Assembly (NCBI GenBank): GCA_036011085.1
Contig: DASCMS010000088.1
Location: 1,855 to 65,854, forward strand
Source of the DNA: Candidatus Latescibacterota bacterium
Lineage (GTDB): Bacteria; Latescibacterota; UBA2968; UBA8231
DNA: 64,000 nt
Direction: 5' to 3'
This document shows positions 846-22,711 of this stretch, piece after piece. The notes under the pieces are model-generated. The model worked only from the letters and a program-made list of their open reading frames with translations. It made no database searches and had not been told where the DNA came from. Position 1 is the stretch's first letter; every line of letters starts with the position of its first letter. The position numbers were made by a program, and so were the translations under genes.

Positions 846-848
846 GAC

Positions 849-2267
<1,419 letters not shown>

Positions 2268-3137: not shown

Positions 3138-3152
3138 CGGTGCTGTTTTCCT

Positions 3153-4844: not shown

Positions 4845-4862
4845 TTCGGTCTCGTCTTCTGT

Positions 4863-5423: not shown

Positions 5424-5436
5424 GGAATGGGTCCGG

Positions 5437-5934
5437 TCAGTTGCTCGCGTCTGGCAGGCTGGCGATGAAATCATCGGCCAGCTTGCGGTTGCGGTCGGCA
5501 TCGAGTTCGGCATTGAGGATCGCCCCGGCGGCACCGACAGCTATGTCAGCTGCCTCCCGGCGTAGCTGGGCGAGGGCCGCACGCTTCTCAGCCTCGATGG
5601 CCTCGCTGGCCCGCTGGGCCGTGCGTTCGGCTTCCTCCCTGGCGTCAGCCACGACCTGCTGACCGACCTTCTCCGCCGCTTCTCGCGCTTCGCTGACAAT
5701 CTGCCGCGCCTGTGATTCCGCCTCGGCAAGCCGCTTTTCGTGTTCGGCCTGCTGTGTCTGGGCTTCCTCGCGGGCGCGGTCGGCGCTCTCGAGGGCCTCG
5801 CGGATGCTGCGCTCCCGTTCGTCGAGAGCGGCGAGCAACGGGCCCCACACCTTTGCCTTCAGTATGACGAGCACCACGACAAAGGTGATGATCGTCCACA
5901 GAATCAGACCGGGATGAGGGGAGAGAAGATCCAT
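5437..5934 (-). CDS. atpF: F0 ATP synthase b subunit
   Basis: 165 aa. One N-terminal TM helix (LILWTIITFVVVLVIL) followed by a long charged helix. Position between c and delta. Confidence 0.85.
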   Translation of the reverse strand: MDLLSPHPGLILWTIITFVVVLVILKAKVWGPLLAALDERERSIREALESADRAREEAQTQQAEHEKRLAEAESQARQIVSEAREAAEKVGQQVVADAREEAERTAQRASEAIEAEKRAALAQLRREAADIAVGAAGAILNAELDADRNRKLADDFIASLPDASN

Positions 5935-5936
5935 TG

Positions 5937-6173
<237 letters not shown>

Positions 6174-6214
6174 CTAAAGTGAACGAAAAATCGAAAAGAC
6201 CGATGGCTCCCGGA

Positions 6215-7027
6215 TCAGTGATCCGGATGCGCGGCCATACTCACGAACAGCGCCGTGAGCAGAGTGAATATGAAGGCCTGTACGAAGCCGATGAAGATCT
6301 CGAGCATGTAGAGCGCCGCCGCCAGGGCGATAGAGGCCGGTGCCACCAGGTAGCTCTTCAACATGATGATGAGGCCGAGGAACACGAGGATGGCGATGTG
6401 TCCGGCGATCATGTTGGCGAACAGTCGGATGCACAGGGCAAACGGCTTGGCCAGCATGCCGATGATCTCGATGGGGATCATGATGATCAACAACGGCGCC
6501 GGCAGGCCGCCGGGCACCAGGTTCTTCCAGTGGCTGAAGAACCCGTTGTTGACGATACCCGCGCCCTGGGTCACGGTGAAGGAGATCAGTGCCAGGGCCG
6601 CGGTGACGCTGATGTTACCCGTCGCCGTCGCCGTGTACGGGATCAACCCGAGCATGTTGCAGTAGAGGATGAAGAAGAAGATCGTCAGCAGGAAAGGGAG
6701 GAAGGTCTTGCCGCTCTCCCCCATCACCGGCATGATGACCTCGTCTTTCAGGAAGACGACAATGGTCTCGAGGAAGTTGGCCAGACCCGTGGGCACCATG
6801 CTCGGCCGGCGGAAGGAGGCCAGCATCGTCAGGATCAGCAAGGCGCTGGCAACCCACATCATCACCACGTGACGGGTGATGGACATGTCGATGCCAAAGA
6901 CCTCAAAGTGCGGAAGTTCGATGTGCCCGTCGAAGATATGATGGGCGTTGATGAACGGTACTTCCAGGGAATGGTGATCCAGGATGTGCCCGATGACGTC
7001 GACCTGACCGTCTGCGTCTGCTGCCAT
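6215..7027 (-). CDS. atpB: F0 ATP synthase a subunit
   Basis: 270 aa, multi-TM. Conserved stator Arg region LCIRLFANMIAGH. Confidence 0.9.
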   Translation of the reverse strand: MAADADGQVDVIGHILDHHSLEVPFINAHHIFDGHIELPHFEVFGIDMSITRHVVMMWVASALLILTMLASFRRPSMVPTGLANFLETIVVFLKDEVIMPVMGESGKTFLPFLLTIFFFILYCNMLGLIPYTATATGNISVTAALALISFTVTQGAGIVNNGFFSHWKNLVPGGLPAPLLIIMIPIEIIGMLAKPFALCIRLFANMIAGHIAILVFLGLIIMLKSYLVAPASIALAAALYMLEIFIGFVQAFIFTLLTALFVSMAAHPDH

Positions 7028-7109
7028 CTACTCCGTCACAGAAGGGAATTGTAGAAGTTTTGCGGCTTTCCGGGGACCACAATCTTCGTTGGCCCGCCAG
7101 AAAATGTGG

Positions 7110-7445
7110 CTAGCCTTCGCCCTTGTCAACACCTCCGTCGGGCCCAGCCAGCGGCCGCCTTCGATTCGCCGAGCGGGCCACGAGAGCCACCTCGATACCG
7201 AGAAAAACCAGGTAGGCGCCGATCAGTCCGACGGCGTAGCCGATGTGGTGTACATCGGTGAACAGCAGCAGCAGAACGGACACGCCACCGACGAGGACGA
7301 GGCGCACCAGGGTGCCTCCCAGCACGGCGACCATCATGGTGCCTGGGCGGCGTGCCGACCAGCGCAGTCCGAACCAGGCGATCAGCGCACTGACCCCGGC
7401 GACGGCGATCCCTGTAGCCACCGCGACCCAAACCTGCTGCAACAT
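7110..7445 (-). CDS. atpI: ATP synthase protein I-like small membrane protein
   Basis: 111-aa hydrophobic protein immediately upstream of atpB. Its start overlaps the stop of the preceding AtpZ-like ORF (TGATG at 7443-7447). Confidence 0.55.
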   Translation of the reverse strand: MLQQVWVAVATGIAVAGVSALIAWFGLRWSARRPGTMMVAVLGGTLVRLVLVGGVSVLLLLFTDVHHIGYAVGLIGAYLVFLGIEVALVARSANRRRPLAGPDGGVDKGEG

Positions 7446-7711
7446 CAGCTCTCCCCGTCTTTGTTGTCTGTCTGCGTGGTGTCGGTGCTCGAATCGATCA
7501 ACGCGCGATAGAGTTGAAAGAAGGCTGCGACGGCGCCGATGAGGCCCCCCGTCAGCAGCAGCCAGGGGGACAGACCCAATCGATCATCAAGCCACCAGCC
7601 TGCCGCTGTACACAGGGCCACGGTAACGGCGAACTGTACACCGGCACCGGCAAGGGCCGTGACCTGCCGCAGGGCGGAGGGTTGCTGCCGCCCGTCGGAT
7701 TCGGCGGCCAT
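7445..7711 (-). CDS. AtpZ/AtpR-like small 2-TM protein (putative F0F1 ATPase accessory subunit)
   Basis: ORF 7445..8038 trimmed to the ATG at 7711 (MAAESDGRQQPSALRQVTALAGAGVQFAVTVALCTAAGWWLDDRLGLSPWLLLTGGLIGAVAAFFQLYR). This two-helix pattern is typical of the ATPase_gene1 family. The upstream extension overlaps the NuoN-like gene. Confidence 0.55.
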   Translation of the reverse strand: MAAESDGRQQPSALRQVTALAGAGVQFAVTVALCTAAGWWLDDRLGLSPWLLLTGGLIGAVAAFFQLYRALIDSSTDTTQTDNKDGES

Positions 7712-9147
7712 CAGCCCCCGGCCGCCAGCGCCGCTGCCCGCGCGATGGGCAGTGGCCACAGACCGAAGACGAGCAGCACCGTTGCCGCCAGCACGGCGGC
7801 GGCCAGCACGGCGGACGTCGCCTCCGGCACCGGTTCGGGTGGCGGTGCGTCGAATATGACCCGACCGGCAAAACGGATCAACGCCCCGGCAAGGACCAGA
7901 CCGTTGAGCATCAGGACGATGGAGACGAGCCCGGTGACTACGCCTTGGCCCTGGCTGTAAAGAGCGGACCAGAGGGCACCCCTCCCGGCGAAAGCCAGGG
8001 TGGGAGGCAGACCCGCCAGGGCCACGAGAAACAGACACAGCAACACGCCCTGTCCCGGCCGGCTCTGCGCCAGGCCGCTGGCCGTGCTTCCGTGCGTGTC
8101 ACCGGCCAGACCGGCCACCGCCAGGCAGCCGGCGACAGCGGGCACAAGAGCAGCCAGTTGCAGGAAGACGGTACCGGAGAAGGGATCCTCGCCGACGTGC
8201 GTAGCGATGCCGGCCAGAACGAAGCCGACGTGGGCCAGCACGGCGTACCCGAGCAGGCGTCGCAGCCGACGCTGCGGCAGAGCCAGCAGCGCGCCTGCCG
8301 TCGATGACAGTACCGCCAGCAGCAACAGCAGGCCTCCGAGGTCGGGCACCAGCGTTGCCAGCGGACCGGCGGCCAGACGGCCGAGCACGATCAACGCCGG
8401 CAGCACGCCGACGCTGAGGGTGAGCATAACCGCGGACGGGGCGCATCCCACGGCAACATCGGCGAGCCACAGATGAAACGGTACGGCCCCGGCGCGGACG
8501 GCCAGCCCCGCCAGCAGCAGTCCGCCGCCCACGGCTGCGCGTGGTGCCGAGCCCTCATTCAGCCCCGTGCCGAGAGCCTCGAAAGCCGGGCTGCCGGAGG
8601 CCGACCACAGGCAGGCGATACCGAGAGCTGACAGCGCCGTTGCCGCGCTCGCCGGACCCGAGTACCGCAGCGCCGCGCGCAACCCGTGCCGTCCCCGGGG
8701 TGGATCGTCGAGGGCCTGATACGCTACCAGACTGATGGCGGCCAGCTCGAACCCCACGAACAGGGTCAGCAGATCCTGCGCGCCGGCGCCGACCATGGCC
8801 CCCAGGGTTGCCGGCAGCATCAGCAGACAGGTCCCGGCCCGTTGCGGTGATGCCGGCGCACCCGTTGCCATCAGCGCTGCCAGCACGACACCGCACAGAA
8901 TGAGAACGTCGGCGAAAGCAGCTGCGGGATCCGCTGCCAGCCAGTGTGTGTCGCCGCGCCAGGGACGGTCCCATGCCTGCAGGGCGATCGCCAGGGCCGT
9001 GAGCAGTCCCAGGAGCGTCGCGTAGGCGATGGCACGGCTCGTGCGTCGAGGCCACATCACGGCATCGAGCAACGCCAGTACCAGGGCGACCAGGGCCAGC
9101 AGGATTTCAGGCGCCAGCTCGGGGGCCTGCAGATCGGTCCAGGTCAC
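7711..9147 (-). CDS. nuoN: NuoN-like antiporter-type subunit of a divergent complex-I-like operon
   Basis: ORF 7711..9903 trimmed to the GTG at 9147 (VTWTDLQAPELAPEILL...), which gives a GTGA overlap with the upstream gene. About 14 TM, with helix-7 motif AVPFHLWLADV. Last in K-L-M-N order. Confidence 0.65.
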   Translation of the reverse strand: MTWTDLQAPELAPEILLALVALVLALLDAVMWPRRTSRAIAYATLLGLLTALAIALQAWDRPWRGDTHWLAADPAAAFADVLILCGVVLAALMATGAPASPQRAGTCLLMLPATLGAMVGAGAQDLLTLFVGFELAAISLVAYQALDDPPRGRHGLRAALRYSGPASAATALSALGIACLWSASGSPAFEALGTGLNEGSAPRAAVGGGLLLAGLAVRAGAVPFHLWLADVAVGCAPSAVMLTLSVGVLPALIVLGRLAAGPLATLVPDLGGLLLLLAVLSSTAGALLALPQRRLRRLLGYAVLAHVGFVLAGIATHVGEDPFSGTVFLQLAALVPAVAGCLAVAGLAGDTHGSTASGLAQSRPGQGVLLCLFLVALAGLPPTLAFAGRGALWSALYSQGQGVVTGLVSIVLMLNGLVLAGALIRFAGRVIFDAPPPEPVPEATSAVLAAAVLAATVLLVFGLWPLPIARAAALAAGG

Positions 9148-10565
9148 GGGGCCTCCTCCGTGACCTGTGCCGCCGTCGCCGTGGGCGGCACCCTCTCCAG
9201 AAGCCCCTCCACGTCCGGTCGTGTGCGGTCCACGAAGGAACCGGGGAACCAGCCTGTGAGCAGCACCACCGCCAGCACCGCCACGAGCAGTCGCGACAGC
9301 GCGACGGGCAGGCCGGGGCCTGTGCGCACGCGGGCCAGACGTACGGTGGGCACCAGCAGGGCAAAGGCCATGGTCACAGTTGCCAGCATCAGTATCCCGG
9401 CCACGACTGGACTGGCGGTGCCCGTCACCACGAGCAGCCAGCCGGGGAACAGACTCGCCCCCGGTGCGGCGACCAGCACCAGGGCCAGCGTCGCCCAGAT
9501 GGCAGCCAGAGTGCCGCGACGCGCCCCGGTATGTGTGATCCACTGCGCCAGCAACAGCAGTGCGACCCGCGGCAGCGCCTGGGCGCTGGCGTACAACCAG
9601 GCCCCCAGCACGACAGAGGTCTCGAGCCCGGCCACGCCGACCAGCAGCAGGCCACCGGCACCGAGGGTGACCCACGACAGTCGTCGTGGCAGATCCTGCT
9701 CCCGCTGGGCGACCGCCAGTAGTGCCGCGTAGGCCAGCGTTGCCGTACCCCAGTAGAGCGGCACCGGGGCGGCGTACGCCAGCAGATCCGGAAACAGGCC
9801 GAGACCGTAGCGCAGCAGGCCGATGACACCGGCAGCGCACCAGGCGCCGAACACGAGGGTGCGCCCTGCCAGGCTTCCGGCGGCAGCCACGGGGGCCAGC
9901 CACGTGTGCAGTGGGATCAGTGGCAACTGCATGGCCATGGCCAGCGCCAGCAGCGAAGCGGCGAAGCGTGCCGCACCCGGATCGATGTGCGTCAGGTCAT
10001 CGATGACGGTCGAACCGGCCACCGCCGACAGGATGGCCGCCGACGTGGACAACAGGATCGTGCCGGCCACCGCCCAGCTGGCAAACCGTCTGGCCGCCGA
10101 CCGACCCGCCAGATCGGTGCCGATTCCCAACAGCGCTGCCAGGGCCAGTCCTGCAGTACCGTGAGCCGCTGCGGCGCTCAGCACGTCGTGGGACAGCAGG
10201 AACAGGTCCATGGCCGCCACCACGACAAAGATCAGTGCCAGGCGCGGCACCGAGGCACCCTCGGCCTGCAGACGGATCTCGGCGATGACGGCAACGACGA
10301 ACACCGCCGTCAACACCAGGATCGCATGGATGCTGATACCGTCGACGGCCAGCAGGATCTGGCTGCCAAGGGCGGGTAGCCAGGATGCCTCGAGCGCGGA
10401 CCGGGGCGCGGCGTAGGTCAGGTAGAGGGCGACGACGAGAATGACGTGGGCGCAGAGACTGACCCCGGCGACGATTTCAGCCGCCAGCCGGCGGCCGGCC
10501 AGGCAGGCCAGAACCGCCGCCGTACCGATGGGCAGCAGGATGAGACAGGTGGTCGCCGGACTCAC
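9144..10565 (-). CDS. nuoM: NuoM-like antiporter-type subunit (divergent)
   Basis: ORF trimmed to the GTG at 10565 (GTGA overlap). Multi-TM, with motif LPLIPLHTWLAPVAAAGSLAG resembling the canonical WLPxAHVEAPTAGS. Confidence 0.65.
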   Translation of the reverse strand: MSPATTCLILLPIGTAAVLACLAGRRLAAEIVAGVSLCAHVILVVALYLTYAAPRSALEASWLPALGSQILLAVDGISIHAILVLTAVFVVAVIAEIRLQAEGASVPRLALIFVVVAAMDLFLLSHDVLSAAAAHGTAGLALAALLGIGTDLAGRSAARRFASWAVAGTILLSTSAAILSAVAGSTVIDDLTHIDPGAARFAASLLALAMAMQLPLIPLHTWLAPVAAAGSLAGRTLVFGAWCAAGVIGLLRYGLGLFPDLLAYAAPVPLYWGTATLAYAALLAVAQREQDLPRRLSWVTLGAGGLLLVGVAGLETSVVLGAWLYASAQALPRVALLLLAQWITHTGARRGTLAAIWATLALVLVAAPGASLFPGWLLVVTGTASPVVAGILMLATVTMAFALLVPTVRLARVRTGPGLPVALSRLLVAVLAVVLLTGWFPGSFVDRTRPDVEGLLERVPPTATAAQVTEEAP

Positions 10566-12235
10566 CAGGTGCCCCCCGTCCGGGTCGACCACAGCAGAAT
10601 CGCGATGGTACCGACGGCGGCGGCCATGGCCCAGCCGGACCGGCCGTCATGGAGCCGCGCCAGCAGCCAGCCGGTGGCGCGCAGCGTCAGGCCGACGGCG
10701 CCGGGCACGCCGCCGAAGAGGGTGCTGTCGATCGCCGTCCAACAGAAGCGTCCCGTAGCCTGCAGGGCGACGCCGCACGCGGTGAGGACTCGAGAGACCC
10801 CGAAGCCTTCATCTGCCCACGATCGCGCCGGCGACGGCACGGCCTCGCGACCGGAAGGACCGTTGCGCCACAGCAGGAACCCGGCCAGAACTGCGATCGC
10901 TGCCGCCCCGGCGGCAATCGCGACGGTCAGCGTCGCCGGTGGCGGCAAGGCAGACCAGCCGACAGCTGCCGACCCCAGGGCCACGAGCACGAGCACCGCA
11001 AGGGTGGTCCGGATGGAAACGGCAGCGTCGGCTGCCGTACTCGTCGTCGTATGCCGAACGGGCCCCGAGTAGGGTACCAGCGCCAGCCGCAGCAGCGGCA
11101 GGACCGGCAGCACGAGCAGTGATACCACAAGGACGGCACCGGGCGGCCCCGCCTCGATCATCCCGTGGCCGGCCAGGGCTGCGTGCGCCCGCAGGGAAGG
11201 CCCCGAGAAGCAGGCGACGATGGCACCTGCCAGCGTCAACCAGCGTGGCCAGGGGAGCACGGCGGCAAGACCGCCGAGCTCGGTGAAGCGTCGCGGGATC
11301 GCGGGCAGGGCGGATTCGATCCGAGCCAGAGCCATCGCCGGTGCCAGCTGGGCGGCGCCGTAGGCAGCCACCAGCATCAGCGCCGCCATCGGCACCAGCG
11401 TCGCCGCCGCCAGCACCAGGCTTCCCTGGGCGGCCATCGTCATCACCTGGGCGCGGAACAGATCCTGCGTCGACAGACTCGAGACCACCGAAATCATCGA
11501 AGACAGGGCAAAGATGACGGCCACGGCAGCCGGCAGCGGCTCGGCGAAACGCAGGAACAGACAGAGCCCGACCACCGCCGCCACGAGGCGGATGCCGGTG
11601 GCTGAACCACTGTCTCCCAGATCCTCGAGCCACGAATGGCAGGGCCAGGCACCGACGAGGATGGCGGCGGCCAACATGGCCAGCCAGGGCGCGGCCCCGG
11701 CGTCGGCAAAGACCAGCGTACCGACCAGTGCCATGCCGCCCAGTCGCGTGGCGGCAAGCAGACGCCGCGCCGCCGGCGTGGTCGCCGACCCGCAGGCGCC
11801 ATGGACGAAGGTGGCAGCCAGCAACAGCTCTGTTCCCGCCAGCGACAGCAGCGCGCCATCGGCGATGATGACGATGCCGCCCCCGACGGCGGCCAGGTCC
11901 AATGCCGCCCCTGTCCGGCCATCCTGCCGGCCGGTCACCAGCGGCGCTGCCACCGTCCACAGACTCAACAGAACCAGCAGGGCGGCGGCTGAACCGTCAC
12001 AGAACAGACCGGCATCGACCGCTCTCTCCCCTGGCTCGGTCAGGGTCAGCCAGTGATACAGAGGCAGGCGCAACGGACCAGAGTCCAGCACGACCCAGGC
12101 GGTGGCCAGGGCTGCGGCGGCAGCGATCCCGCGCGCCACGTGCGCTCCCGTGCGACGCCCGGTGAGATCGGCCACGGCTGCCGCCAGCAGCAGAGCCGGC
12201 GTCAGGGCCGGCAGCACCGAAAGCTCGCTTACCAC
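10562..12235 (-). CDS. nuoL: NuoL-like antiporter-type subunit (divergent, about 557 aa)
   Basis: ORF 10562..12538 trimmed to the GTG at 12235 (VVSELSVLPAL...), a 7-nt overlap with the NuoK-like stop. Multi-TM, with motif WPCHSWLEDLGDSGSATG. Follows the K-like gene as in nuo operons. Confidence 0.65.
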   Translation of the reverse strand: MVSELSVLPALTPALLLAAAVADLTGRRTGAHVARGIAAAAALATAWVVLDSGPLRLPLYHWLTLTEPGERAVDAGLFCDGSAAALLVLLSLWTVAAPLVTGRQDGRTGAALDLAAVGGGIVIIADGALLSLAGTELLLAATFVHGACGSATTPAARRLLAATRLGGMALVGTLVFADAGAAPWLAMLAAAILVGAWPCHSWLEDLGDSGSATGIRLVAAVVGLCLFLRFAEPLPAAVAVIFALSSMISVVSSLSTQDLFRAQVMTMAAQGSLVLAAATLVPMAALMLVAAYGAAQLAPAMALARIESALPAIPRRFTELGGLAAVLPWPRWLTLAGAIVACFSGPSLRAHAALAGHGMIEAGPPGAVLVVSLLVLPVLPLLRLALVPYSGPVRHTTTSTAADAAVSIRTTLAVLVLVALGSAAVGWSALPPPATLTVAIAAGAAAIAVLAGFLLWRNGPSGREAVPSPARSWADEGFGVSRVLTACGVALQATGRFCWTAIDSTLFGGVPGAVGLTLRATGWLLARLHDGRSGWAMAAAVGTIAILLWSTRTGGTW

Positions 12236-12513
12236 TTCAGCGGGTCGCCGTCGTCGTCGGCCAGGATCTCGTCGCCGCCGGCCTCCTGCAGGGTGGTGAC
12301 GAGCAGCCCATGCAGGACCGTGAGGCCCACTGCCAGAGCCGCAAACCACTCTCCCGCGGGGCCTACCAGGGCCAGGATGGCAACCAGCGCTCCGAGGCCG
12401 CCCAGCTGGCCGCCGATGACGGATGCCAGTCGATGGCGACGCGCGAAGGCGGCGCCCAGACCGAGGCCGATCAGGGACGCGGCGAGGATCAGCATCAGGC
12501 CCTGAGGCGTCAT
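12229..12513 (-). CDS. nuoK: NuoK-like 3-TM subunit (divergent)
   Basis: Trimmed to the ATG at 12513 (MTPQGLMLILAASLIGLGLGAAFARRHRLASVIGGQLGG...), an ATGA overlap with the J-like stop. The pattern resembles NuoK (iGl.G...rRn.l..lm.iE), but with Q where the Glu is expected. Confidence 0.55.
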   Translation of the reverse strand: MTPQGLMLILAASLIGLGLGAAFARRHRLASVIGGQLGGLGALVAILALVGPAGEWFAALAVGLTVLHGLLVTTLQEAGGDEILADDDGDPLKW

Positions 12514-12965
12514 ATGTCCTGCCTGCCGACGCTGGCACGCCACACGGCGCTCAGTCCCAGAATGACGGCGAGGGCGGCAAGACCGGCTGCGGCCACCAGG
12601 AAAGGTCCATTCCCTGGGGGCGCTTCACCGGCGCCACCCATGCCGCCGGCCGTCGACGCCAGGCACACCACGAGCGTGACGGCCAGGGCTACGGCCAGGG
12701 CTACCGGCCACGCCAGACCGGTGCGCCCCGTGGCTACGTCATGCCTGCCGGCCAGACGGCCGCTGACGATGCCCAGCCCGCCGTAGGCGATCAGTATGGC
12801 GGCCGCGGACAGGGGGGCGGCGAAATGCAGCAGGGCCAGCGCCGCCACACACGCCGCCGTCAGTCCCAGAGCCAGGCAGGCGCGTGTCGCGGTGCCGGCC
12901 AGGGCAGCGACGACGGCGGCGGCGATGCCGGTGGCACCCAGAATGCCCGGCACGATCAGCTCCAT
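12510..12965 (-). CDS. nuoJ: NuoJ-like membrane subunit (divergent)
   Basis: Tail of ORF 12510..13628 from the ATG at 12965 (MELIVPGILGATGIAAAVVAALAG...). 151 aa, hydrophobic. The call rests mainly on its position between the H-like and K-like genes. Confidence 0.45.
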   Translation of the reverse strand: MELIVPGILGATGIAAAVVAALAGTATRACLALGLTAACVAALALLHFAAPLSAAAILIAYGGLGIVSGRLAGRHDVATGRTGLAWPVALAVALAVTLVVCLASTAGGMGGAGEAPPGNGPFLVAAAGLAALAVILGLSAVWRASVGRQDI

Positions 12966-13906
12966 GGAACACCCCCCGACACCCGCACGAGACTCCAGAG
13001 CACATCGATCCCGGCCAGCGGCAGCAGGCGCCGCCAGACCAGGCGGGACAGGCCGTCGGCGTCCGCCTTGGTGATGGCCGCCTGCAGCAGGAAAACGAGA
13101 GTGACCCAGAGCGTCACACCGGCCCAGATCGCGACGTCGGGCAGCTGGGTCACACCCGGTGCAAGACCCAGATAGAGGTGCACTGCCAACGCCGACGCCG
13201 CACCGATGAGCAGGGGTCGCGACAGCCGCAACAGCAAGACGCCAGCACCGGGGCCATCGATGAGGCCGGGATTGAGGCGACCGACGCCGGTACCCTCCAT
13301 GGCCTGACGGTAGGCGGCGGAGAGCGCGGCCAGGGCGCCGAGGAAGGCGAACCCGCCGCACGGATGGTGCCACAGAGGCCAGCTTCCCAGCACCCGGGTC
13401 TGGAAACCAGCCTCCGTGTCGCCCGCGACAATGCACGCAGCCACACACAGCACCAGGGTCACCTGGGTGCCGACGAGGGGAAGGATCACCGCCGCCAGCG
13501 GTTGCCGCCGTGCGGGTGTCACCGTCGTGGCCAGGGCGAACAGGGCAAAGGGCACCACCGCCAGCAGACCGGCGAGCCCGAGGAGGCGCTCGGTGGCCGT
13601 GGCGGTCACCGGGAGGCCGCCAAGCCAACCTCCCGCCGGCAGTCCCCCGACGAGTAGTACCGTGGGAACCAGTACGACGCCGACGCCGACGGCATATCGT
13701 GGACCTCGCGCCGGTGTCGACTTCGACAGCAGCCTCAGGACGTCGGCGAGGATCGCCGTTCCCAACAGCACTCCGCGGCGGCGACGCAACCCGAGGGCAC
13801 GGCGCGTGAACAGCGACTCGATCGTCGCCGTCAGCAACGCCAGCAACAGAGCGCCAGCGAATCCGGTGAAGATGATCTGCAGCTGCTGTGGCGACGGCAT
13901 CGTCAT
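12956..13906 (-). CDS. nuoH: NuoH-like membrane subunit (divergent)
   Basis: 316 aa, multi-TM. The N-terminal region IESLFTRRALGLRRRRGVLLGTAILADVLRLLSK resembles the NuoH ERK..a.mQ.R.GP...G.lQ..aD..Kl..K block. ATGA overlap with the NuoG stop. Confidence 0.55.
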   Translation of the reverse strand: MTMPSPQQLQIIFTGFAGALLLALLTATIESLFTRRALGLRRRRGVLLGTAILADVLRLLSKSTPARGPRYAVGVGVVLVPTVLLVGGLPAGGWLGGLPVTATATERLLGLAGLLAVVPFALFALATTVTPARRQPLAAVILPLVGTQVTLVLCVAACIVAGDTEAGFQTRVLGSWPLWHHPCGGFAFLGALAALSAAYRQAMEGTGVGRLNPGLIDGPGAGVLLLRLSRPLLIGAASALAVHLYLGLAPGVTQLPDVAIWAGVTLWVTLVFLLQAAITKADADGLSRLVWRRLLPLAGIDVLWSLVRVSGGVPWS

Positions 13907-15552
13907 CGTCGTTTGGCGTGGTCCTCGACAGCGATCAACCCGCGTCGCTGCAGATGGCTGGTCCAGCCGCCACCGAAGGCGACCCCTTCGACCGGACGGG
14001 AGCGGCTCTCCAGTACACCGTAGTCGAGCCGTGCAAAAGGCCCTTCGGCGGAGCTGCGCGCCAGCCGTGAAAACGCCTGATCCGGCGAATCACGGTTGGG
14101 ACCACCGTGCCAGAGGGCGGCGAAGATCCAGAAATCAGGCCGCGCTTCACCAGCGGGTCGAACCGCCGCGCGCACCCTCTGAAGGCGCCCCTGACCATCG
14201 ATGAAAGTACCGTCCTTCTCGGTCCAGGCACTGCCGCCGGCCAGCACGACGTCGGCAGCCTCGAGGCCGGGCAGGCACATCACCTCTTGCCGGGCATGGA
14301 ACACGTCCTCGGGCAGGCTGAGATCGGGGCCCTCGCCATGGAGCGACCCGCCCACGGCGTAGACTGCGTCCACATCGCCCGCAGCCACGCGCCTGGACAG
14401 GTCGGATGAATCCGCCAGCATGAGGTCGAGAACATCAACCACAGCGGTGACCCCGGCGACATTCGGCCCCCGTTGAGCCTTGATGCTGAAGCCGCCGGGG
14501 AACGTGCGATCGCCCCGTGGCTCTTCCGCCTGCCACAGGAACAGATCCGCCTCCCAGCGCAAGGCCAGGTTGGCCAGGAGAAAGGTCTCTTCGTTGGTCA
14601 GGTATGGACTCAACAACACGGCCGCCGCCTTGGCCTGCTCCATCCGCTCGGCCACGACGGCGAAGGCGGCGTCCCATTCGGACTCCTGCCCGTGCAGCCG
14701 GAGCGCCAGCAGGCGGTCATCCTCGATCTGCCAGCCGTAGCGTCCCGTGTCGCACAACCAGTATCCCTGGGCATCGTCGCCGTCGCTGCGCGGCTTCACC
14801 CGGTGCACGACACCATTGGCCACATCGATACGCGTGGCGCAGCCGCTGGCACATCCGGGACAGACGCTGCTGACGCCGGTCAGCTGCCAGGGAGGAGGAC
14901 GCATGCGCTCCCCCGGCTCGCTGAGGGCGCCGGCGGGACACAGGTCGAGCAGATTGCCCGTCAGTTCGTGATCGATGGGGCCGGCACCGCAGGTGTCGAT
15001 GACGGCGGCGGCGCCCGACCCGTACACGGCGAGTCCGGCGCCGCCGCTGACCTCGGCGTCGAAGCGCACACAGCGCGTGCACAGGATGCAACGGTTACGA
15101 TCGAGCACCAGGCGGGGTCCCAGCTCCACCCGCGGCCGGTCAGCGGGCAGGGTCGTCTTCGTCGTGCCGTCGCCGTGAGTGGCAGCCGCCTCCTGCACCT
15201 CGCACTCCCCTGCGCGCTCGCAGATGGCGCACTCGGCCGGGTGACGCAGCAGTAGATCGTCCACCAGGCCGCTGCGCGCCGCCGCTACCTGCTCCTGACG
15301 CACCGACAGACGTTGCCCCTCCTCGACAGTGCGGTTGCAGGCCGTGACCATCCTGGATTCGGCAGGCTGCCCCGGCCCGGAGGGCTCCGCCAGCGCCACG
15401 AGGCACAGACGACAGGAGGCCGGCGACGACAGGGCCGGATGATGGCACGGATGGGGCAGGGCGTGTCCCGCCTCGAGCAAAGCGGCGAGCAGGTTCGTAC
15501 CGGCTTCGACGTCGACTGGTTCGTCATCGATGTAGATTCGGACCGTCGCCAT
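13903..15552 (-). CDS. nuoG: NADH dehydrogenase 75-kDa-type subunit NuoG (short form, 549 aa)
   Basis: 2Fe-2S pattern PCHH...SCRLC...AC. N5 pattern HPAECAICERAGEC. N4 pattern CILCTRC...LCP. Additional CPGCASGC cluster. Followed by a molybdopterin-like domain remnant. Confidence 0.85.
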   Translation of the reverse strand: MATVRIYIDDEPVDVEAGTNLLAALLEAGHALPHPCHHPALSSPASCRLCLVALAEPSGPGQPAESRMVTACNRTVEEGQRLSVRQEQVAAARSGLVDDLLLRHPAECAICERAGECEVQEAAATHGDGTTKTTLPADRPRVELGPRLVLDRNRCILCTRCVRFDAEVSGGAGLAVYGSGAAAVIDTCGAGPIDHELTGNLLDLCPAGALSEPGERMRPPPWQLTGVSSVCPGCASGCATRIDVANGVVHRVKPRSDGDDAQGYWLCDTGRYGWQIEDDRLLALRLHGQESEWDAAFAVVAERMEQAKAAAVLLSPYLTNEETFLLANLALRWEADLFLWQAEEPRGDRTFPGGFSIKAQRGPNVAGVTAVVDVLDLMLADSSDLSRRVAAGDVDAVYAVGGSLHGEGPDLSLPEDVFHARQEVMCLPGLEAADVVLAGGSAWTEKDGTFIDGQGRLQRVRAAVRPAGEARPDFWIFAALWHGGPNRDSPDQAFSRLARSSAEGPFARLDYGVLESRSRPVEGVAFGGGWTSHLQRRGLIAVEDHAKRR

Positions 15553-16847
15553 CAGTAGCGCACGTGGATGCTGTCAGGAACCTTCATCGACGAATCCTTG
15601 GCCACCGGGCAACCACCCTCGAGGTGGGCTTCGAACTCGTCGGTGAATGCGGTGAGCAGCGACTGTATGCCGCGCGCCGCTGCCGGGCCGTGACCACACA
15701 GTGCCAAGTCCGGCGTCAGCGTCGTGCAGCATCGCGTGATCAGCTCCAGGTCCTGGAGGATCGCGGCCCCCTCCTCCAGCCGGTCGAGGGTTGCGGCGAG
15801 CCATTGGGTCCCCTCCCGGCAGGGCAGACACTTGCCGCAGGCGCTGTCGGCGAAGGTTCGCGCCATCCGTCTCGCCGTATCCACGGCGCAGACCGAATCA
15901 TCGGCCACCAGGACCACGCCGCCGCCGAAGACTCCTGGGTTCTTCCCTCCTGCCGGGTCTGACCAGCAACCGGGATCGAGGGGACGGTCGAGATCCTCTT
16001 CGAGCAGGGCGGGAGCCGAGCCGTACCCCGCGTGCAGAACGAACTTGATCGACTGACCGTCGCGGGCCCCGCCCGCGAGGTCCTCGACGAGATCGCGAAC
16101 CGTGCCGCCGCCGAGTTCCACCTCGTAGAGCCCCGGACGACGAACCAGACCGCTGACACAGAAGGCCTGGGTCCCGGGCGCCCAGCGGCTGCCCTCATTG
16201 CCGAAGACATCGCCGCCCGTGGCCAGCAGCGCTGGCAGGTACCCCAGGGTGGAAGCGGTGTGCACCACGGCGGTCCCGTCGAACAGGCGAGGCAGGCTCG
16301 GGTTGCCGTCGTCGGCCCGCGGCTCGGCCCGGCCGCCCTGAACCAGCGCCACCGGCAGGCTGTCCCCGGAGGCGACAGGCAAGCGGCCCGAAACAGGATG
16401 GAGATGTACGGCCACCGGCTCGATACGCGTCTCTTCCAGAGCCTGCGCCAGAGCCTGGCGAGCCCTGAGTGCGGCCGCCGCAATACAGATGTAAACCGTA
16501 TGGGCGCCGACGGCATGAGCCGCGATGCGGGCCCCCTCCAGGATTCGGTGAGGGGTGCGCTCGGCGAGTTTACGGTCGCGGAAACGACCGGGCTCGGACT
16601 CCAGCAGATCGACGATGAGATACCCGGCTCCGCCCCCTGACGCAGCCAGGCGCCAGCGCTCGCCAACGGGTCGCCAGGCACCACCACGCCCGCGCAGCCC
16701 GGCGGCCCCCACTTCGTCGATGACAGTGGCCGGCGGCAACGACTGAGCCCGTCGCAGCCCCTCGCCTCCGCCGTGCTCGCCGTACACCGGCCACCTGTCG
16801 ATGTCCGGCGTATCGATCCCTTCAAACAGAATGCGGCGTTCCTCCAT
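15552..16847 (-). CDS. nuoF: NADH dehydrogenase 51-kDa-type subunit NuoF (divergent)
   Basis: ORF trimmed to the ATG at 16847 (MEERRILFEG...). Motifs GLRGRGGAWRPVGERW, YLIVDLLESEPGRFRDR, and N3 cluster SACGKCLPCREG...LCGHG. Confidence 0.8.
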   Translation of the reverse strand: MEERRILFEGIDTPDIDRWPVYGEHGGGEGLRRAQSLPPATVIDEVGAAGLRGRGGAWRPVGERWRLAASGGGAGYLIVDLLESEPGRFRDRKLAERTPHRILEGARIAAHAVGAHTVYICIAAAALRARQALAQALEETRIEPVAVHLHPVSGRLPVASGDSLPVALVQGGRAEPRADDGNPSLPRLFDGTAVVHTASTLGYLPALLATGGDVFGNEGSRWAPGTQAFCVSGLVRRPGLYEVELGGGTVRDLVEDLAGGARDGQSIKFVLHAGYGSAPALLEEDLDRPLDPGCWSDPAGGKNPGVFGGGVVLVADDSVCAVDTARRMARTFADSACGKCLPCREGTQWLAATLDRLEEGAAILQDLELITRCCTTLTPDLALCGHGPAAARGIQSLLTAFTDEFEAHLEGGCPVAKDSSMKVPDSIHVRY

Positions 16848-17284
16848 CAGTCGACATCTCCGGCACGATCCCCGGCCACCAGTGAGTCGAGCCGTTCCGG
16901 GGTGAGGCCGTCGTACAGTCGGCCGTTGCGGGCCATGACGGGGGCTGCGGCGCAGGCGCCGAGACAGTCCGACGTGACCACGCGCACGCCGGGCAGACCG
17001 GCGAGACGTTGACAGGCTGCCTCTCCACCCATCCAGCCACAGCTGAGCCCCATGCACACGGTGACCACGTCGCCGTCATCGGTGTTTCCGTGCCGCGACG
17101 ATGCGATCCCGTGTACCGCCGCCAGGGGCAGACCGGTGTGGCCGCCGACCCAGCGCGCCGCGGCCTCATCCCAGGTGCGCCCGCTGCCGAGCACCAGGTC
17201 CACCAGCGGGTATAGCGCCCCCTCCGGGTCCGGGTATGCCGAGACCAGTGCCCGGGCGCGTTCGTCCAGATCGGCGAAGTCCAT
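16847..17284 (-). CDS. nuoE: NADH dehydrogenase 24-kDa-type subunit NuoE
   Basis: Trimmed to the ATG at 17284 (MDFADLDERARALVSAYP...). Thioredoxin-like 2Fe-2S ligands VCMGLSCGW...SDCLGACAAAP. Confidence 0.8.
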   Translation of the reverse strand: MDFADLDERARALVSAYPDPEGALYPLVDLVLGSGRTWDEAAARWVGGHTGLPLAAVHGIASSRHGNTDDGDVVTVCMGLSCGWMGGEAACQRLAGLPGVRVVTSDCLGACAAAPVMARNGRLYDGLTPERLDSLVAGDRAGDVD

Positions 17285-18774
17285 CACCGATCCATTTCCG
17301 GGGCGACGATGTTCATGCTTGCCACGACACCGGGGGCCTGATCCCACTCGGTGCCGGGGAGCAGATGCTCGAGTAGCTGAAAATGATACAGAGATGGGGA
17401 GCGGAGGTGTACGGCCGCTGGTTTGCCCGTGCCGTCGGCAGCCAGCCAGAACGCCAGTTCGCCATCAGCAGATTCCGTCGGCCGGTACACCGTACCGGGA
17501 TGCGGACGGTGACCGTGGCCATCCATCCACAGCTCGAAGTGGTCGATCAGCTCCGCCGCCTCCATGGGTGTGGTCAGCGCCCCGGGCCGCGATGGCCCCG
17601 CGGGGAGATCGCTCAGACACTGACGGCAGATGCCGAGGCTCTGGGGCATCTCCGCCAGGCGCACGGCGACCCGGTCGGCCACATCACCGTCGCTCGCCAC
17701 CGGCACGTCGAAGTCCACCTCCGAGTACTCGAGGTAGGGGGCGTCGCGACGGACATCGACAGCCGTACCCGTTGCCCGCAGCGCCGGGCCGGTGATGGCC
17801 CAGAGGCGAGCGGTGGAATCGTCGATGGCGGCGAGGCCGGCGAATCTGCGGCGCCAGTCGGCATCATCGATCAGCTGCCGCCGTGCTGCCGCACACAGAT
17901 CCTCCACGGCGTTGGCCAACGCCGTCAGCAGAGCCTGACTGTTGGTGGTTGCATCCGCTTCTACGCCGCCGACGCGAAGCACGCCTGTCGCCCAGCGACT
18001 GCCGCTGGCATCGACCAGGAGCCGGGCCGCCGCTTCGCGCGCTTCCAGGGCCTGGCCCCGCAGGGCCCCGTCGCTGCCCGCCTGCGCCGTCAGCCAGGCA
18101 CAGTGAGCGCCGATGCGGCTGACCTCCGCCAGTATCATGCGCACCCGCTGGCAGCGAGATGAAGTTGTCACGCCGAGCAGCTCTTCTGCCGCCAGGATCG
18201 CCGCCAGCCCTACGGCGAAGGGAGCCTGCTCGTTCAGGCCTTCGGCCAGCTGCGGCAGCTGTGCATACCCGTGGCGTGTGGCCAGAGCCTCAAAGTCACT
18301 GTGGGTCTTGCCGGGGATGGCCTGCGCCGCCTCGATGACCCGATGCTGCAGACGAACACGCAGATCCAGTCGCCAGGGCGTTGCCACGCCCGGATCGGGC
18401 AGGACGAGATAGCCGTCCGACTCCGCGCCGTCGTCGGCGCCGTCCTCCTCGTCGTGGGCGGCGCGCACCGCCGCCGTCCACAGCGGCGTCGGCGTCGGAT
18501 CGCCGGTGAACCGTACACCGATACGCTCCACCGCCTCCCGTTGCGGCCAGATGGCCGCAGGCCAGATGTTGCGCAACGACGGCATTTCGTCGGCCGCCGA
18601 CAGGACCAGCTGCGAACGACGGCCGGACTCGGAGCGCAGCTGCAGGACCGCCTCGACGTCGGAGCCCCGGCCGTGAGGGCGGCGTGCGTACCAATCCATG
18701 AGCTGGGCGGCGTCGGGGCCGCTCGACAGACGCCCGGCCTCGGCCAACAGATCGACGACAGCGGAGACCGTCAT
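17284..18774 (-). CDS. Fused NuoC-NuoD-like subunit (divergent)
   Basis: 496 aa. The N-terminal part has IWPAAIWPQREAVERIGVRFTGDP (NuoC-like W..A.W.ERE..d.fGi.F.GHP). The C-terminal part ends RSPSLYHFQLLEHLLPGTEWDQAPGVVASMNIVAPEMDR (NuoD-like R.PSF.N...L......D....GS.D.V.GE.DR). Confidence 0.75.
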   Translation of the reverse strand: MTVSAVVDLLAEAGRLSSGPDAAQLMDWYARRPHGRGSDVEAVLQLRSESGRRSQLVLSAADEMPSLRNIWPAAIWPQREAVERIGVRFTGDPTPTPLWTAAVRAAHDEEDGADDGAESDGYLVLPDPGVATPWRLDLRVRLQHRVIEAAQAIPGKTHSDFEALATRHGYAQLPQLAEGLNEQAPFAVGLAAILAAEELLGVTTSSRCQRVRMILAEVSRIGAHCAWLTAQAGSDGALRGQALEAREAAARLLVDASGSRWATGVLRVGGVEADATTNSQALLTALANAVEDLCAAARRQLIDDADWRRRFAGLAAIDDSTARLWAITGPALRATGTAVDVRRDAPYLEYSEVDFDVPVASDGDVADRVAVRLAEMPQSLGICRQCLSDLPAGPSRPGALTTPMEAAELIDHFELWMDGHGHRPHPGTVYRPTESADGELAFWLAADGTGKPAAVHLRSPSLYHFQLLEHLLPGTEWDQAPGVVASMNIVAPEMDR

Positions 18775-19118
18775 CCTCGGCGCCCTGGCCCGCTGCCGGC
18801 GTCGCGTCGACTGACATGCAGCAGGAGGATCAGTAAAACGACGAGAGGTACACCGACACCGACGAGGGCGGTGGCATCAGGTCGAGGTACGATGGCCCAT
18901 GCGGCCACCAGCAGAGAGAGGACCATGGCGACACCGGCCCATCCGGCGAGAGGGCTCTGGCCGGGAGGCTCCAGCCCTTCGGGTGAAACGCCACCATCTT
19001 CCGTGCGGACAACCCGGCCACCGCACAGCACACGGCCCAGCAGAGCCAGGGCTGCACCGAACAGGCACCACAGACTGAAATAGATGAGGATGGACAGGTA
19101 GGTGGTCAAGGGCCTCAC
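18771..19118 (-). CDS. Small 3-TM membrane protein in the NuoA position (NuoA-like, weak)
   Basis: ORF 18771..19250 trimmed to the GTG at 19118, because the upstream part overlaps nqrM. About 115 aa with three hydrophobic helices. ATGA overlap with the NuoCD start. Canonical NuoA motifs are not recognisable. Confidence 0.35.
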   Translation of the reverse strand: MRPLTTYLSILIYFSLWCLFGAALALLGRVLCGGRVVRTEDGGVSPEGLEPPGQSPLAGWAGVAMVLSLLVAAWAIVPRPDATALVGVGVPLVVLLILLLHVSRRDAGSGPGRRG

Positions 19119-19152: not shown

Positions 19153-19401
19153 CTAAACGGCTGTGGCCGGGGCTTCCTCGTCGACGGTTGCCCTGTTCTG
19201 GTCGAACCGGCGTTCCGGGTCGTTGCCACAGGACTCGCCGGCACGGGCACCGCACTCGCACATGGGTTCGCCGTCTTCGGTCTTCATGTTGGCCAACCCG
19301 CCACAGGACCCGGTGATACGACGGTTGCTGACGATGACGCCGACGGCCATACCGGTCATGACTACGCAGAAACCGACAAAGGCCGCCACAAAAAGGCTCA
19401 C
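19153..19401 (-). CDS. nqrM: (Na+)-NQR maturation protein NqrM
   Basis: 82 aa. One TM helix followed by RITGSCGGLANMK...CECG...C, matching the NqrM/DUF539 GSCGG-Cys signature. Located directly downstream of nqrF. Confidence 0.8.
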   Translation of the reverse strand: MSLFVAAFVGFCVVMTGMAVGVIVSNRRITGSCGGLANMKTEDGEPMCECGARAGESCGNDPERRFDQNRATVDEEAPATAV

Positions 19402-19417
19402 CGGCAGTAGCCTCTCA

Positions 19418-20653
19418 TCACGACCCGAAGTCGTCGAAGCGGATCATGTCGTCCTCGACGCCGAGGTCATCGAGCATCTTGCGAACCGCCGACGACATCA
19501 TCGGCGGACCGCACAGATAGTACTCGATATCTTCTGGCGCCGGGTGTTTCGACAGGTATTCGTCGAGTACGACCTGGTGAATGAACCCCCGGTAGCCACT
19601 CCAGTTGTCCTCGGGCAACGGCTCGGACATGGCAACGTTGAACTTGAAGTTCGGGAACTTGCCTTCGATGTCGCGGAACTGGTCCTCGTAGAACAGTTCC
19701 TTGCTGGAACGCGCCCCATACCAGTAGGAGACCTTGCGGCTCGTGCCTTCGGTATGGAACAGGTGGAACAGATGCGAGCGCAGCGGGGCCATACCGGCGC
19801 CACCCCCGATGTAGCACATCTCCCGTTCCGTGTCCTGGATGAAGAACTCTCCGTAGGGTCCGGAGATATTGACCTTGTCGCCGGGTTTGCGGCTGAAGAC
19901 GTAGGAGGACGCCAGCCCCGGGTTGACCTTCATCCAACCGCCGGCGGCGCGATCAAAGGGCGGCGCGGCGATGCGGATGTTGAGCATGACGATGTCACCC
20001 TCGGCCGGATGGTTGCCCATGGAATAGGCGCGTACCACCGTGCCGGTATTCTTCGTCTGCAGGCCCCACATCTTGAAATGGTCCCAGTCGCTGTGGAAGC
20101 GCTCGTCGATGTCGAAGTCCTTGAAATCGCACTCGAAGGGCGGCACTTCGATCTGGATGTAGCCTCCCGACTGGAAATCGAGAGTCTCACCCGCGGGCAG
20201 CTTGACGACGAACTCTTTGATGAAGGTGGCCACGTTGTTGTTGGACACCACCTCGCACTCGAGCTTCTTCACCGAGAAAACGTCGGCGGGCACCTCGATC
20301 TTCAGGTCCTGTTTGACGTTGACCTGGCACGAGAGGCGTGTGCCTTCCAGCTCGTCACGACGGTTGATGTGTTCTTTCTCGGTGGGCAGGATGTCCCCGC
20401 CCCCTTCATAGACCTTGACCTTGCACTGGGCGCAGGTACCGCCGCCGCCGCAGGCGGATGACACGAAAATCCCCTGATCGGCCAGCACGTTGAGCAACTT
20501 GCCGCCGGCCTCGGTCTGGAGCTGACGCTCGCCGTTGACGTCGATGGTGACGTCACCGCTGGCCACGAGCTTGGACCGGGCCGCCAGAATCACGGCGACG
20601 AGGGCGAGGACCATACCCGTAAACAGGCCGACGCCGCCGACGATTTCGATCAT
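19418..20653 (-). CDS. nqrF: Na+-translocating NADH:quinone oxidoreductase subunit F
   Basis: 411 aa. N-terminal TM helix, 2Fe-2S ferredoxin [12 protein letters not shown], and an FAD/NADH-binding domain (RAYSMGNHP). Confidence 0.95.
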
Positions 20654-20669
20654 GTAAGTACCCTAGTCC

Positions 20670-21281
20670 CTACAGCTGGATGCCGGAAAAGGCCATGAAG
20701 GCCATGGCCATGAGGCCGACGGTCATGAAGGTGATGCCCAGGCCGCGCAGGCCGTGAGGGACATCGCTGTATTGCAGTTTCTCCCGCACCCCGGCCAGCG
20801 CCACGATGGCCAGGGCCCAGCCGAGGCCGGAACCGAAGCCGAAGACGACGCTCTCGCCGAAGTCGTAGTCGCGCTCGACCATGAACAGCGAGCCGCCGAG
20901 AATGGCACAGTTCACCGTGATCAGCGGCAGGAAGATGCCCAGAGCGTTGTAGAGTGCAGGCACGTACTTGTCGAGGAACATCTCGAGAATCTGCACGCTG
21001 GCGGCGATGACACCTATGTAGCTGATCAGGCCGATGAAGGTCAGGTCGACACCGCCGAGACCGAGGACGCCCAGGGCCTCCTCCTTCAGCAGGTGACGGT
21101 AGACGAGGTTGTTGAGCGGCACCGTGATCGTCTGCACGACGATGACGGCGACGCCGAGTCCGAAGGCGGTGGACACGCGCTTCGACACGGCCAGGTAGGT
21201 GCACATCCCCAGGAAGAACGCCAGGGCGAGGTTCTCGACGAAGACGGACTTGACGAAGAGACTGAGATAGGCTTCGGCCAT
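20670..21281 (-). CDS. nqrE: Na+-NQR subunit E
   Basis: Tail of ORF 20670..22139 from the ATG at 21281 ([34 protein letters not shown]...). 203 aa. TAATG overlap with nqrD. Confidence 0.95.
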
Positions 21282-21904: not shown

Positions 21905-21913
21905 GTTGATGTC

Positions 21914-22696: not shown

Positions 22697-22711
22697 CTGC
22701 TGAATCCTTCC

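Follow-up and report, generated by a model that had tools for sequence, protein, structure and literature searches.

A conserved complex I derivative without NuoB, NuoI and nearly all catalytic residues, encoded between nqr and atp genes in Candidatus Latescibacterota

We analysed a 64,000 nt stretch of DNA (hereafter the window) from the assembly GCA_036011085.1 of a marine Candidatus Latescibacterota bacterium (contig DASCMS010000088.1, positions 1,855 to 65,854 of the forward strand), and focused on an eleven-gene, complex I-like cluster on its minus strand, here designated nuo'. The cluster encodes a conserved complex I derivative that is under selection, and that is without NuoB, NuoI and nearly all catalytic residues. 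Judged by the established structure-function relationships of complex I, the nuo' product could neither serve as an NADH:quinone oxidoreductase nor pump protons in the canonical way, and the NADH:quinone oxidoreductase that translocates Na+ (Na+-NQR) and is encoded upstream presumably fills the NADH:quinone role. We give about an even chance to a fuller interpretation, in which nuo' is a complex I derivative that was inherited vertically throughout the clade, is catalytically silent and has been kept for a structural or assembly role.

To our knowledge, the NuoB/D/I core is common to all known variants of the complex I family, which differ only in the electron-input module that they carry. The nuo' cluster shows the reverse pattern, with the input module and membrane arm kept, and the catalytic core and nearly all coupling residues gone. 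Selection has maintained this arrangement across deep lineages, joined to nqr wherever upstream DNA was read, and conservation across a whole bacterial clade suggests that the disabled complex probably still has some use.

The nuo' cluster and the absence of NuoB and NuoI

Positions 7711-19118 of the minus strand hold eleven open reading frames (ORFs) in the nuo order A', fused C/D, E, F, G, H, J, K, L, M and N:

18771..19118, minus strand: A', NuoA-like, 115 aa, with three hydrophobic stretches (weak family profile match to E. coli NuoA)
17284..18774, minus strand: fused NuoC/NuoD-like protein, 496 aa (PF00329 and PF00346)
16847..17284, minus strand: NuoE-like, 145 aa (PF01257)
15552..16847, minus strand: NuoF-like, 431 aa (PF01512 and PF10589)
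13903..15552, minus strand: short NuoG-like protein, 549 aa (Pfam/NCBIfam domain matches)
12956..13906, minus strand: NuoH-like, 316 aa (NCBIfam at E=0.008 only; family profile against E. coli NuoH, 5e-12)
12510..12965, minus strand: membrane protein at the NuoJ position, 151 aa (assigned mainly by position)
12229..12513, minus strand: NuoK-like, 94 aa (family profile against E. coli NuoK, 8e-11)
10562..12235, minus strand: NuoL-like, 557 aa (family profile against E. coli NuoL, 2e-22)
9144..10565, minus strand: NuoM-like, 473 aa (NDH_I_M at 94 bits, cut-off 264; family profile, 5e-39)
7711..9147, minus strand: NuoN-like, 478 aa (NDH_I_N at 166 bits, cut-off 333; family profile, 8e-34)

All eleven ORFs are intact, and the stop of each overlaps the start of the next, by 4, 1, 1, 1, 4, 10, 4, 7, 4 and 4 nt in order from A' to N. 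The stop of N in turn shares a 1 nt overlap with the start of an AtpZ-like gene.

Pfam and NCBIfam recognized C/D, E, F, G, M and N, all well under the curated cut-offs (NuoD equivalog, 243 bits against 360; nuoF_fam, 247 bits against 559; NuoG equivalog, 278 against 470). H was marginal, and the window copies of A, J, K and L gave no Pfam/NCBIfam family match. Family profiles were built from orthologues that had been extracted by homology guidance from the loci of relatives (given L numbers below), and were searched against the E. coli Nuo proteins. The best E. coli match was the positional counterpart for every subunit except J, with A weak, and none of the profiles matched E. coli NuoB or NuoI. 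The sole PDB profile match of J was to NdhG/NuoJ, at a non-significant E=1, and its orthologues in L016 and L019 match PF00499. Likewise, orthologues of A in L012, L018 and L019 match PF00507, and those of H in L012, L016 and L019 match PF00146. The AlphaFold model of C/D (predicted local distance difference test, pLDDT, 85.7; predicted template modelling score, pTM, 0.88) has E. coli NuoCD as its best PDB match, with a TM-score of 0.90 at 22% identity; as modelled, C/D retains a NuoCD-like fold.

A' overlaps C/D directly and H overlaps J by 10 nt, which leaves no space for nuoB or nuoI at these positions. Searches by tblastn with E. coli NuoB and NuoI returned nothing from the 64 kb window or from the relatives' B/I-less loci searched, and the same searches detected NuoB in the control locus L010 and both NuoB and NuoI in the control locus L014. 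The gene tables of L016-L019 contain no B or I, and neither gene lies within 10 kb in the relatives' loci checked. Scanning all six frames, we found no CxxCxxCxxxC or CCxxE match in the nuo' cluster; the only matches in the window, at ~32.9, 36.4 and 40.4 kb, fall in stretches rich in Cys and appear to be due to chance. CxxCxxCxxxC itself has a single match, near 32.9 kb and outside the cluster. Twenty of the larger ORFs elsewhere in the window, annotated by Pfam, are housekeeping genes (for example a TonB receptor, a Na+:alanine symporter and pyruvate dehydrogenase), with no further nuo genes among them. The loss of NuoB and NuoI means the loss of clusters N2, N6a and N6b, and the nuo' cluster falls outside respiratory complex I (Nuo13/14) on both counts, NuoB/N2 and NuoI/N6a+N6b, within the 64 kb window.

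An earlier, sequence-only reading of this DNA had described eleven coupled ORFs in canonical nuo order, with overlaps of 1-10 nt at every junction and with NuoB and NuoI missing. The ORF model and coordinates and the family profiles bear out the first part; the overlaps, tblastn, family profiles and six-frame motifs bear out the second, and profile hidden Markov model searches found no NuoB or NuoI domain within these ORFs. The same reading had seen no Cys in the first ~200 residues of C/D, and the first indeed lies at about residue 208.

Loss of catalytic residues and retention of iron-sulphur ligands

Residue alignments used E. coli Nuo references from NC_000913.3 together with PDB chains. 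In the window NuoD, aligned to Thermus Nqo4, the quinone-site residues His38 and Tyr87 (Thermus numbering) are replaced by Pro and Glu, respectively. The His38 equivalent is missing in all lineages read, and Tyr87 is retained solely in L019. The three flavin mononucleotide (FMN)/NADH motifs of NuoF (GRGGAGF, GAGxYxCGEETAL and NNVET) are all substituted in the clade of the window: in the window itself, GRGGAGFSTG has become GRGGAWRPVG, GAGRYICGEETAL has become SGRLPVASGDSLPVAL, and NNVET has become HTAST. Trp at the second-Gly position of GRGGAGF (A-G-F to x-W-x) is found in every lineage read, including the basal ones, and a GxEETAL-like loop is kept in the four deep branches read (L012, L016, L018 and L019).

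The membrane arm has been altered to a similar extent. In NuoK, E36 is replaced by Gln, which is invariant across the clade, and E72 by His in the window. NuoL retains E144 and the lateral-helix region, and has lost D178, K229, H334, H338, K342, K399 and D400. NuoM has lost E144, K234, K265 and E407. NuoN retains E133, has Arg at K158, K217 and K395, and has lost K247. The PxHxWL core is retained in NuoL, NuoM and NuoN. NuoH has lost most acidic residues of its quinone tunnel and E-channel and most of its loop acids, and D79 and E81 are gone from NuoA.

The ligands of the iron-sulphur (Fe-S) clusters show the opposite picture. NuoF retains the four Cys ligands of N3; all 13 family sequences compared have the same N1a ligands in NuoE (C92, C97, C133 and C137, E. 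coli numbering); and the NuoG ligands of N1b, N5 (His included), N4 and N7, located by motif, are retained and invariant in 10 family sequences. All 24 of the 24 Fe-S ligands of NuoE, NuoF and NuoG are therefore present and invariant (10-13 sequences) at six sites, N1a, N3, N1b, N5, N4 and N7. Among other Cys-containing columns 11 of 34 are invariant, and the background column invariance is 18-28%.

These results agree with the by-eye observations made previously on the window, namely that the quinone His of NuoD, the Glu of transmembrane helix 2 of NuoK and the conserved Lys residues of NuoL, NuoM and NuoN were gone (none of these three proteins contains any Lys) although the PxHxWL core remained, that GAGRYICGEETAL of NuoF was changed, and that the Fe-S ligands of E, F and G were complete. 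Together, the residue audit and the absence of B and I also support the proposal that the canonical electron path from NuoG to quinone has gone, and the pump residues with it.

Two C-terminal motifs are shared by the window and even the deepest of the B/I-less branches read: GGCPVAKDxSMKVPDSIHVR[YF] in NuoF (window 15552-15620) and GGGWxxxLQRRGxxxxEDH in NuoG (window 13903-13990). Both are clade-specific, being missing from E. coli and from L014, and are candidates for new interfaces.

The amino acid composition of the eleven proteins is unusual. Lys accounts for 17 of 3805 residues (0.45%) and is entirely missing from A, E, J, L, M and N, whereas most flanking Nqr and Atp proteins contain 2-5.6%. 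Ala and Gly together make up 24-41% of the block proteins. The nuo' block is ~70% G+C, against ~62-64% in the adjoining nqr and atp genes; the surplus falls at the first and second codon positions (Ala, Gly and Arg), and the G+C content of third codon positions (GC3) is below that of the flanks. This shift is the pattern expected of GC-biased drift under relaxed constraint.

Distribution of the architecture among relatives

The relatives of C/D comprise about 26 protein clusters at the 90% level, with 34-76% identity. They come from uncultured bacteria represented solely by metagenome-assembled genomes (MAGs), complete chromosomes among them, which where named are labelled Candidatus Latescibacterota or uncultured Gemmatimonadaceae. 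The sequences that bear the cluster include the complete chromosomes OZ252098.1 and OZ220089.1 and ENA contigs of 2.7-3.0 Mb from ERZ25072076 and ERZ25069399. In the databases these proteins are called either 'hypothetical protein' or NuoC/NuoD, and the latter, automated labels overstate function.

The B/I-less architecture was found in L001-L009, L011-L013, L016, L018 and L019 (L003 and L018 being truncated by contig ends), and spans lineages in which C/D is only about 35-50% identical. Every locus of both crown clades has the identical B/I-less order. Four deeper branches (L012/L013, L016/L017, L018 and L019) carry nqrA-F, nqrM, A, C/D, E, F and G, followed by H-N where the contig allows, again without B or I; Pfam still detects NuoA, H, J and K in these deep branches. 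The NuoJ-position gene of L012 (about 12306-13046) contains a run of Ns and a duplicated stretch, a scaffolding artefact, and the near-identical L013 copy (179 aa) was used in its place. The nqr genes lie directly upstream wherever upstream DNA was read (L001, L002, L012, L013 and L016-L019), L014 being the exception in synteny. Downstream DNA was read in L001 and L002, and in both atpZ (PF09527) directly follows N.

The deep branches have Gln at both NuoK glutamates, and are already without K234 and K265 of NuoM, K229 and K399/D400 of NuoL and the His38 equivalent of NuoD. H334, H338 and K342 of NuoL are retained in L016 and L019, and E407 of NuoM in L016. Since the deep branches are without quinone-site and pump residues yet keep the GxEETAL flavin loop, it is likely that B, I and the quinone site were lost and the pump neutralized first, and that the flavin site was lost later, in the crown clades.

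In an exhaustive profile search combined with a neighbour-joining tree, most B/I-less C/D proteins group together. Their nearest neighbours are C/D fusions with altered quinone sites that are accompanied by NuoB and a NuoI-like ferredoxin (L014 and low-GC B-C/D-I clusters). One B/I-less protein, P0030 of L018, falls outside the main group, a placement that may be an artefact of the distance method. The low-GC C/D fusions P0043 and P0053 were considered as further examples of the nuo' architecture and rejected, as NuoB lies upstream in both and a ferredoxin-like gene lies downstream in L021.

Selection and constraint

For unsaturated pairs, the ratio of non-synonymous to synonymous substitution rates (dN/dS, Nei-Gojobori method, NG86) of the nuo' genes is 0.3-0.55, with the very short A and J reaching higher values; such estimates are approximate in a strongly GC-biased genome. 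The flanking nqrB, nqrC and nqrF give 0.04-0.28, and nqrD gives 0.2-0.58. Synonymous divergence (dS) between the window and its nearest relatives exceeds 1, yet every ORF is open, and all eleven ORFs are also intact in L005, L006 and L008. Apparent breaks were seen in L004 (G), L009 (F), L002 (G) and L001 (H). Decay was rejected as the cause for L004, L009 and L001, where comparison with near-identical intact orthologues showed one 10-N scaffold gap and, in long-read assemblies, two indels of a single base; the comparison covered these three of the four breaks. L001 also has a broken nqrA.

The nuo' cluster therefore shows neither the stops and frameshifts nor the dN/dS near 1 of a decaying pseudogene. 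The suggestion that simple pseudogene decay does not account for it is upheld by dN/dS values well below 1, by an architecture that persists across divergent lineages, and by the finding that the inspected frameshifts are assembly artefacts. The eleven genes are kept as protein-coding under purifying yet relaxed selection.

Constraint is unevenly distributed. The share of invariant columns is 18-28% in C/D, E, F and G and only 6-12% in A, H, J, K, L and M, and about 100 positions of C/D, many of them charged, are invariant across lineages that are ~35-50% identical. The peripheral arm (C/D, E, F and G) thus bears most of the constraint, and the membrane subunits drift as generic transmembrane scaffolds. 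Strongly relaxed constraint is evident both in the membrane arm and in the amino acid composition.

Genomic context

The following features flank the nuo' block:

19153..25294, minus strand: nqrABCDEF and nqrM (Na+-NQR), upstream of the block (NCBIfam/Pfam; the nqrE call is putative)
849..7711, minus strand: atpZ-like and atpI-like genes, then the F-type ATP synthase genes a, c, delta, alpha, gamma and beta, downstream of N
7711..7445, minus strand: atpZ-like (PF09527, Pfam)
7445..7110, minus strand: atpI-like (ORF directly after the atpZ-like gene)
5937-6158, minus strand: ATP synthase c subunit, 73 aa (PF00137)

NqrB, NqrC, NqrD and NqrF pass their NCBIfam equivalog cut-offs, and NqrA and NqrM have Pfam matches (PF04400 for NqrM). 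The NQR and ATP synthase on either side of the block are canonical. From the end of nqrM to the start of A' there are 34 nt, and in a consensus scan promoter- and terminator-like sites within the nuo' block were no commoner than in shuffled sequence. The simplest reading is that nqr, nuo' and atp form one long transcription unit. Judged by eye against the c subunit sequence of Ilyobacter tartaricus, the c subunit of the window is without the Gln/Ser-Thr Na+-binding signature, so that the ATP synthase adjoining a Na+-pumping NQR looks H+-coupled.

Further upstream, a TonB-dependent receptor and a Na+:alanine symporter are encoded divergently from nqrA (window 25583-29677, plus strand). The same pair lies upstream of nqr in the deep relatives L016 (1-2988) and L019 (1-3285), which indicates that synteny reaches past the respiratory block. 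At 33122-38552 on the plus strand lie the genes for all of pyruvate dehydrogenase (E1, E2 lipoyl-acyltransferase and E3 dihydrolipoamide dehydrogenase), marking the window as a core chromosomal region rather than a mobile element.

Possible roles of the nuo' product

If the structural interpretation is correct, the product would be a catalytically silent, L-shaped particle with Fe-S clusters. The clusters would serve stability, as off-pathway N7 does in canonical enzymes, and a structural or assembly function within a respiratory membrane built on NQR would account for the retention of the particle. Translational coupling inside the nqr-nuo'-atp unit would help to keep the block open, since a stop or frameshift within it would have a polar effect on expression of the ATP synthase. 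For an Fe-S site kept for stability and not for the main electron path, N7 of canonical complex I is a precedent, but canonical enzymes have only one or two off-pathway clusters, whereas in nuo' a whole chain would be left without entry and exit. Several considerations weigh against this interpretation. A purely structural role is an argument by elimination, and we put it forward less firmly than the loss of canonical catalysis; live electron transfer would likewise fit the intact state of all six Fe-S sites, the conserved motifs that are specific to the clade at the C termini of NuoF and NuoG, and the GxEETAL-like flavin loop retained in L012, L016, L018 and L019; and the dN/dS values are approximate, as noted above.

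The main rival is a redox-active enzyme with a new function. Under this hypothesis, a membrane-anchored NuoCD-E-F-G module still moves electrons along N3-N1b-N4-N5 to a new partner, such as an NQR subunit or a soluble carrier, at the former NuoI/NuoB site, with NADH as the donor in basal lineages and another donor in the clade of the window. The invariance of the 24 ligands, the peripheral arm as the most constrained part, the flavin loop of the deep branches, the C-terminal motifs that could form new interfaces, and the strict linkage to nqr wherever upstream DNA was read are all in its favour. However, the cluster contains no candidate acceptor gene, the flavin loop is destroyed in the clade of the window, and Trp interrupts the GRGGAGF motif in every lineage read, basal ones included. 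NqrF is of the canonical type and can oxidize NADH by itself, the block combines relaxed selection with a drifted composition, and, as off-pathway clusters (N7, for example) illustrate, stability alone can be a reason for Fe-S sites to persist. Neo-functionalization of the nuo' complex is plausible in general terms, but this redox-active version of it seems to us rather unlikely. Considering the relaxed membrane arm, the Lys content of 0.45%, the richness in Ala, Gly and Arg and the 6-12% of invariant columns, a mostly non-catalytic relic within the nqr-atp unit accounts for the data no less well than a new enzyme does.

The relic could in principle be without any function, and its frames might stay open for no other reason than polarity, since in the operon it stands between nqr and the essential atp genes. 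The overlap of all junctions, that of N with atpZ included, and the lack of internal terminators or promoters that stand out are consistent with this explanation, as are the low invariance of the membrane subunits, the near-disappearance of Lys from Ala/Gly/Arg-rich proteins with GC3 below the flanks, and dN/dS values 2-5x those of nqr. Yet dN/dS is clearly below 1 in all adequately long genes, and polarity alone would not be expected to preserve 24 Fe-S ligands and about 100 C/D positions, many of them charged, or a C/D protein with a confident NuoCD-like AlphaFold model. Moreover, deletion of the whole block would end the polarity at no cost, and the block is kept by all relatives read; we consider a functionless relic improbable. 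Least credible of all, and in our view very improbable, is a working complex I with NuoB and NuoI supplied in trans from elsewhere in the genome. The sister-type locus L014, from a Planctomycetota MAG, does carry B and I beside a related C/D-E-F-G set. However, even with B and I the His and Tyr of NuoD, the flavin loop of NuoF, the Glu of NuoK and all Lys of NuoL, NuoM and NuoN would be missing; neither gene turned up in the 64 kb of the window, nor within 10 kb at those loci of relatives that were checked, and all equivalog scores are far under their cut-offs.

Two narrower roles were considered and rejected. A Na+/H+ antiporter function of the membrane arm, which would link the Na+ pump to the H+-looking ATP synthase, requires Lys and Glu residues that are missing and whose replacements are unconserved, and a new metal site in C/D is contradicted by the lack of any invariant Cys in that protein.

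Returning to the structural interpretation, we speculate that the product might be a 'pseudo-complex I', a dead Fe-S particle long kept as a scaffold or as a docking or assembly partner for Na+-NQR and/or ATP synthase; alternatively, the orphan Fe-S chain might feed a new partner at the vacated NuoB/NuoI site. We offer this proposal tentatively, as possible though doubtful; if true, a 'pseudo-complex I' would be the first respiratory complex known to persist as a pseudoenzyme. If the particle is made, the use of a complex I scaffold without catalysis, the way in which a lineage dismantles complex I after acquiring NQR, and the persistence of Fe-S chains for stability alone all become testable questions.

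Comparison with known complex I variants and related clusters

Among characterized systems, E. coli complex I, with its fused NuoCD (PDB 7p7j, 7nyr), is alike in gene order, and homology to the E. coli protein at the same position holds for ten of the eleven nuo' subunits. Both also have the full set of Fe-S ligands in NuoE, NuoF and NuoG, and the lateral-helix region of NuoL. The nuo' cluster differs from the E. coli enzyme in lacking NuoB (N2), NuoI (N6a/b), the quinone His and Tyr, the FMN/NADH loop, the NuoK Glu, the Lys residues of NuoL, NuoM and NuoN and the loop acids of NuoH, and in its shorter NuoG (549 aa).

The eleven-subunit enzymes (cyanobacterial and plastid NDH-1, Fpo and the 'Nuo11' of anaerobes) have likewise lost a module from the fourteen-subunit plan (PMC3144371, PMC11238625). 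These enzymes are without NuoE, NuoF and NuoG, are active, and keep NuoB, NuoI, the quinone site and the pump residues (PMC3144371, PMC11238625). The nuo' cluster has the opposite pattern, with E, F and G present and B and I missing, and does not belong to that class. Mrp antiporters and membrane-bound hydrogenase (MBH) modules have NuoL/M/N-type subunits with a broken-helix PxHxWL core in common with nuo', but rely on conserved Lys and Glu residues that are missing from it. Nor does the nuo' block qualify as an Mrp-type antiporter, as Pfam and NCBIfam detected no MrpE, MrpF, MrpG or hydrogenase genes in it.

The sequence-only reading had also supposed that a complex I subclass with E, F and G but without B and I was undescribed, and our full-text literature searches found no description of one. 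The main phylogenomic survey scored a genome missing any core subunit as being without complex I, and the partial operons that it discussed were only those without NuoE, NuoF and NuoG (PMC4453560). In marine Gemmatimonadota isolates, nqr is reported to be present and nuo absent (PMC11651109).

L014 and the low-GC clusters L021 and L022 encode related fused C/D proteins with altered quinone-site residues, but have NuoB and a NuoI-like ferredoxin and no link to nqr. Where downstream DNA was read, in L014 and L021, no membrane subunits are adjacent (the L022 contig is too short). L014, labelled Planctomycetota, carries NuoB, C/D, E, F, G and a NuoI-like gene at 101-6227. Its NuoB and NuoI Cys motifs are retained, the flavin loops and one N3 Cys have been lost from its NuoF, and the quinone His and Tyr are missing from its NuoD; it is a second kind of degenerate complex I-like cluster. 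In L021 (3101-5724) and L022 (1527-3668), NuoB lies upstream of the low-GC fused C/D, with the NuoI-like ferredoxin directly downstream in L021. This low-GC C/D group is large and has no NuoE, NuoF or NuoG nearby; in it the second quinone-site His is replaced by Gln, Arg, Lys or Asn, and the Tyr is often Phe, Ser or His.

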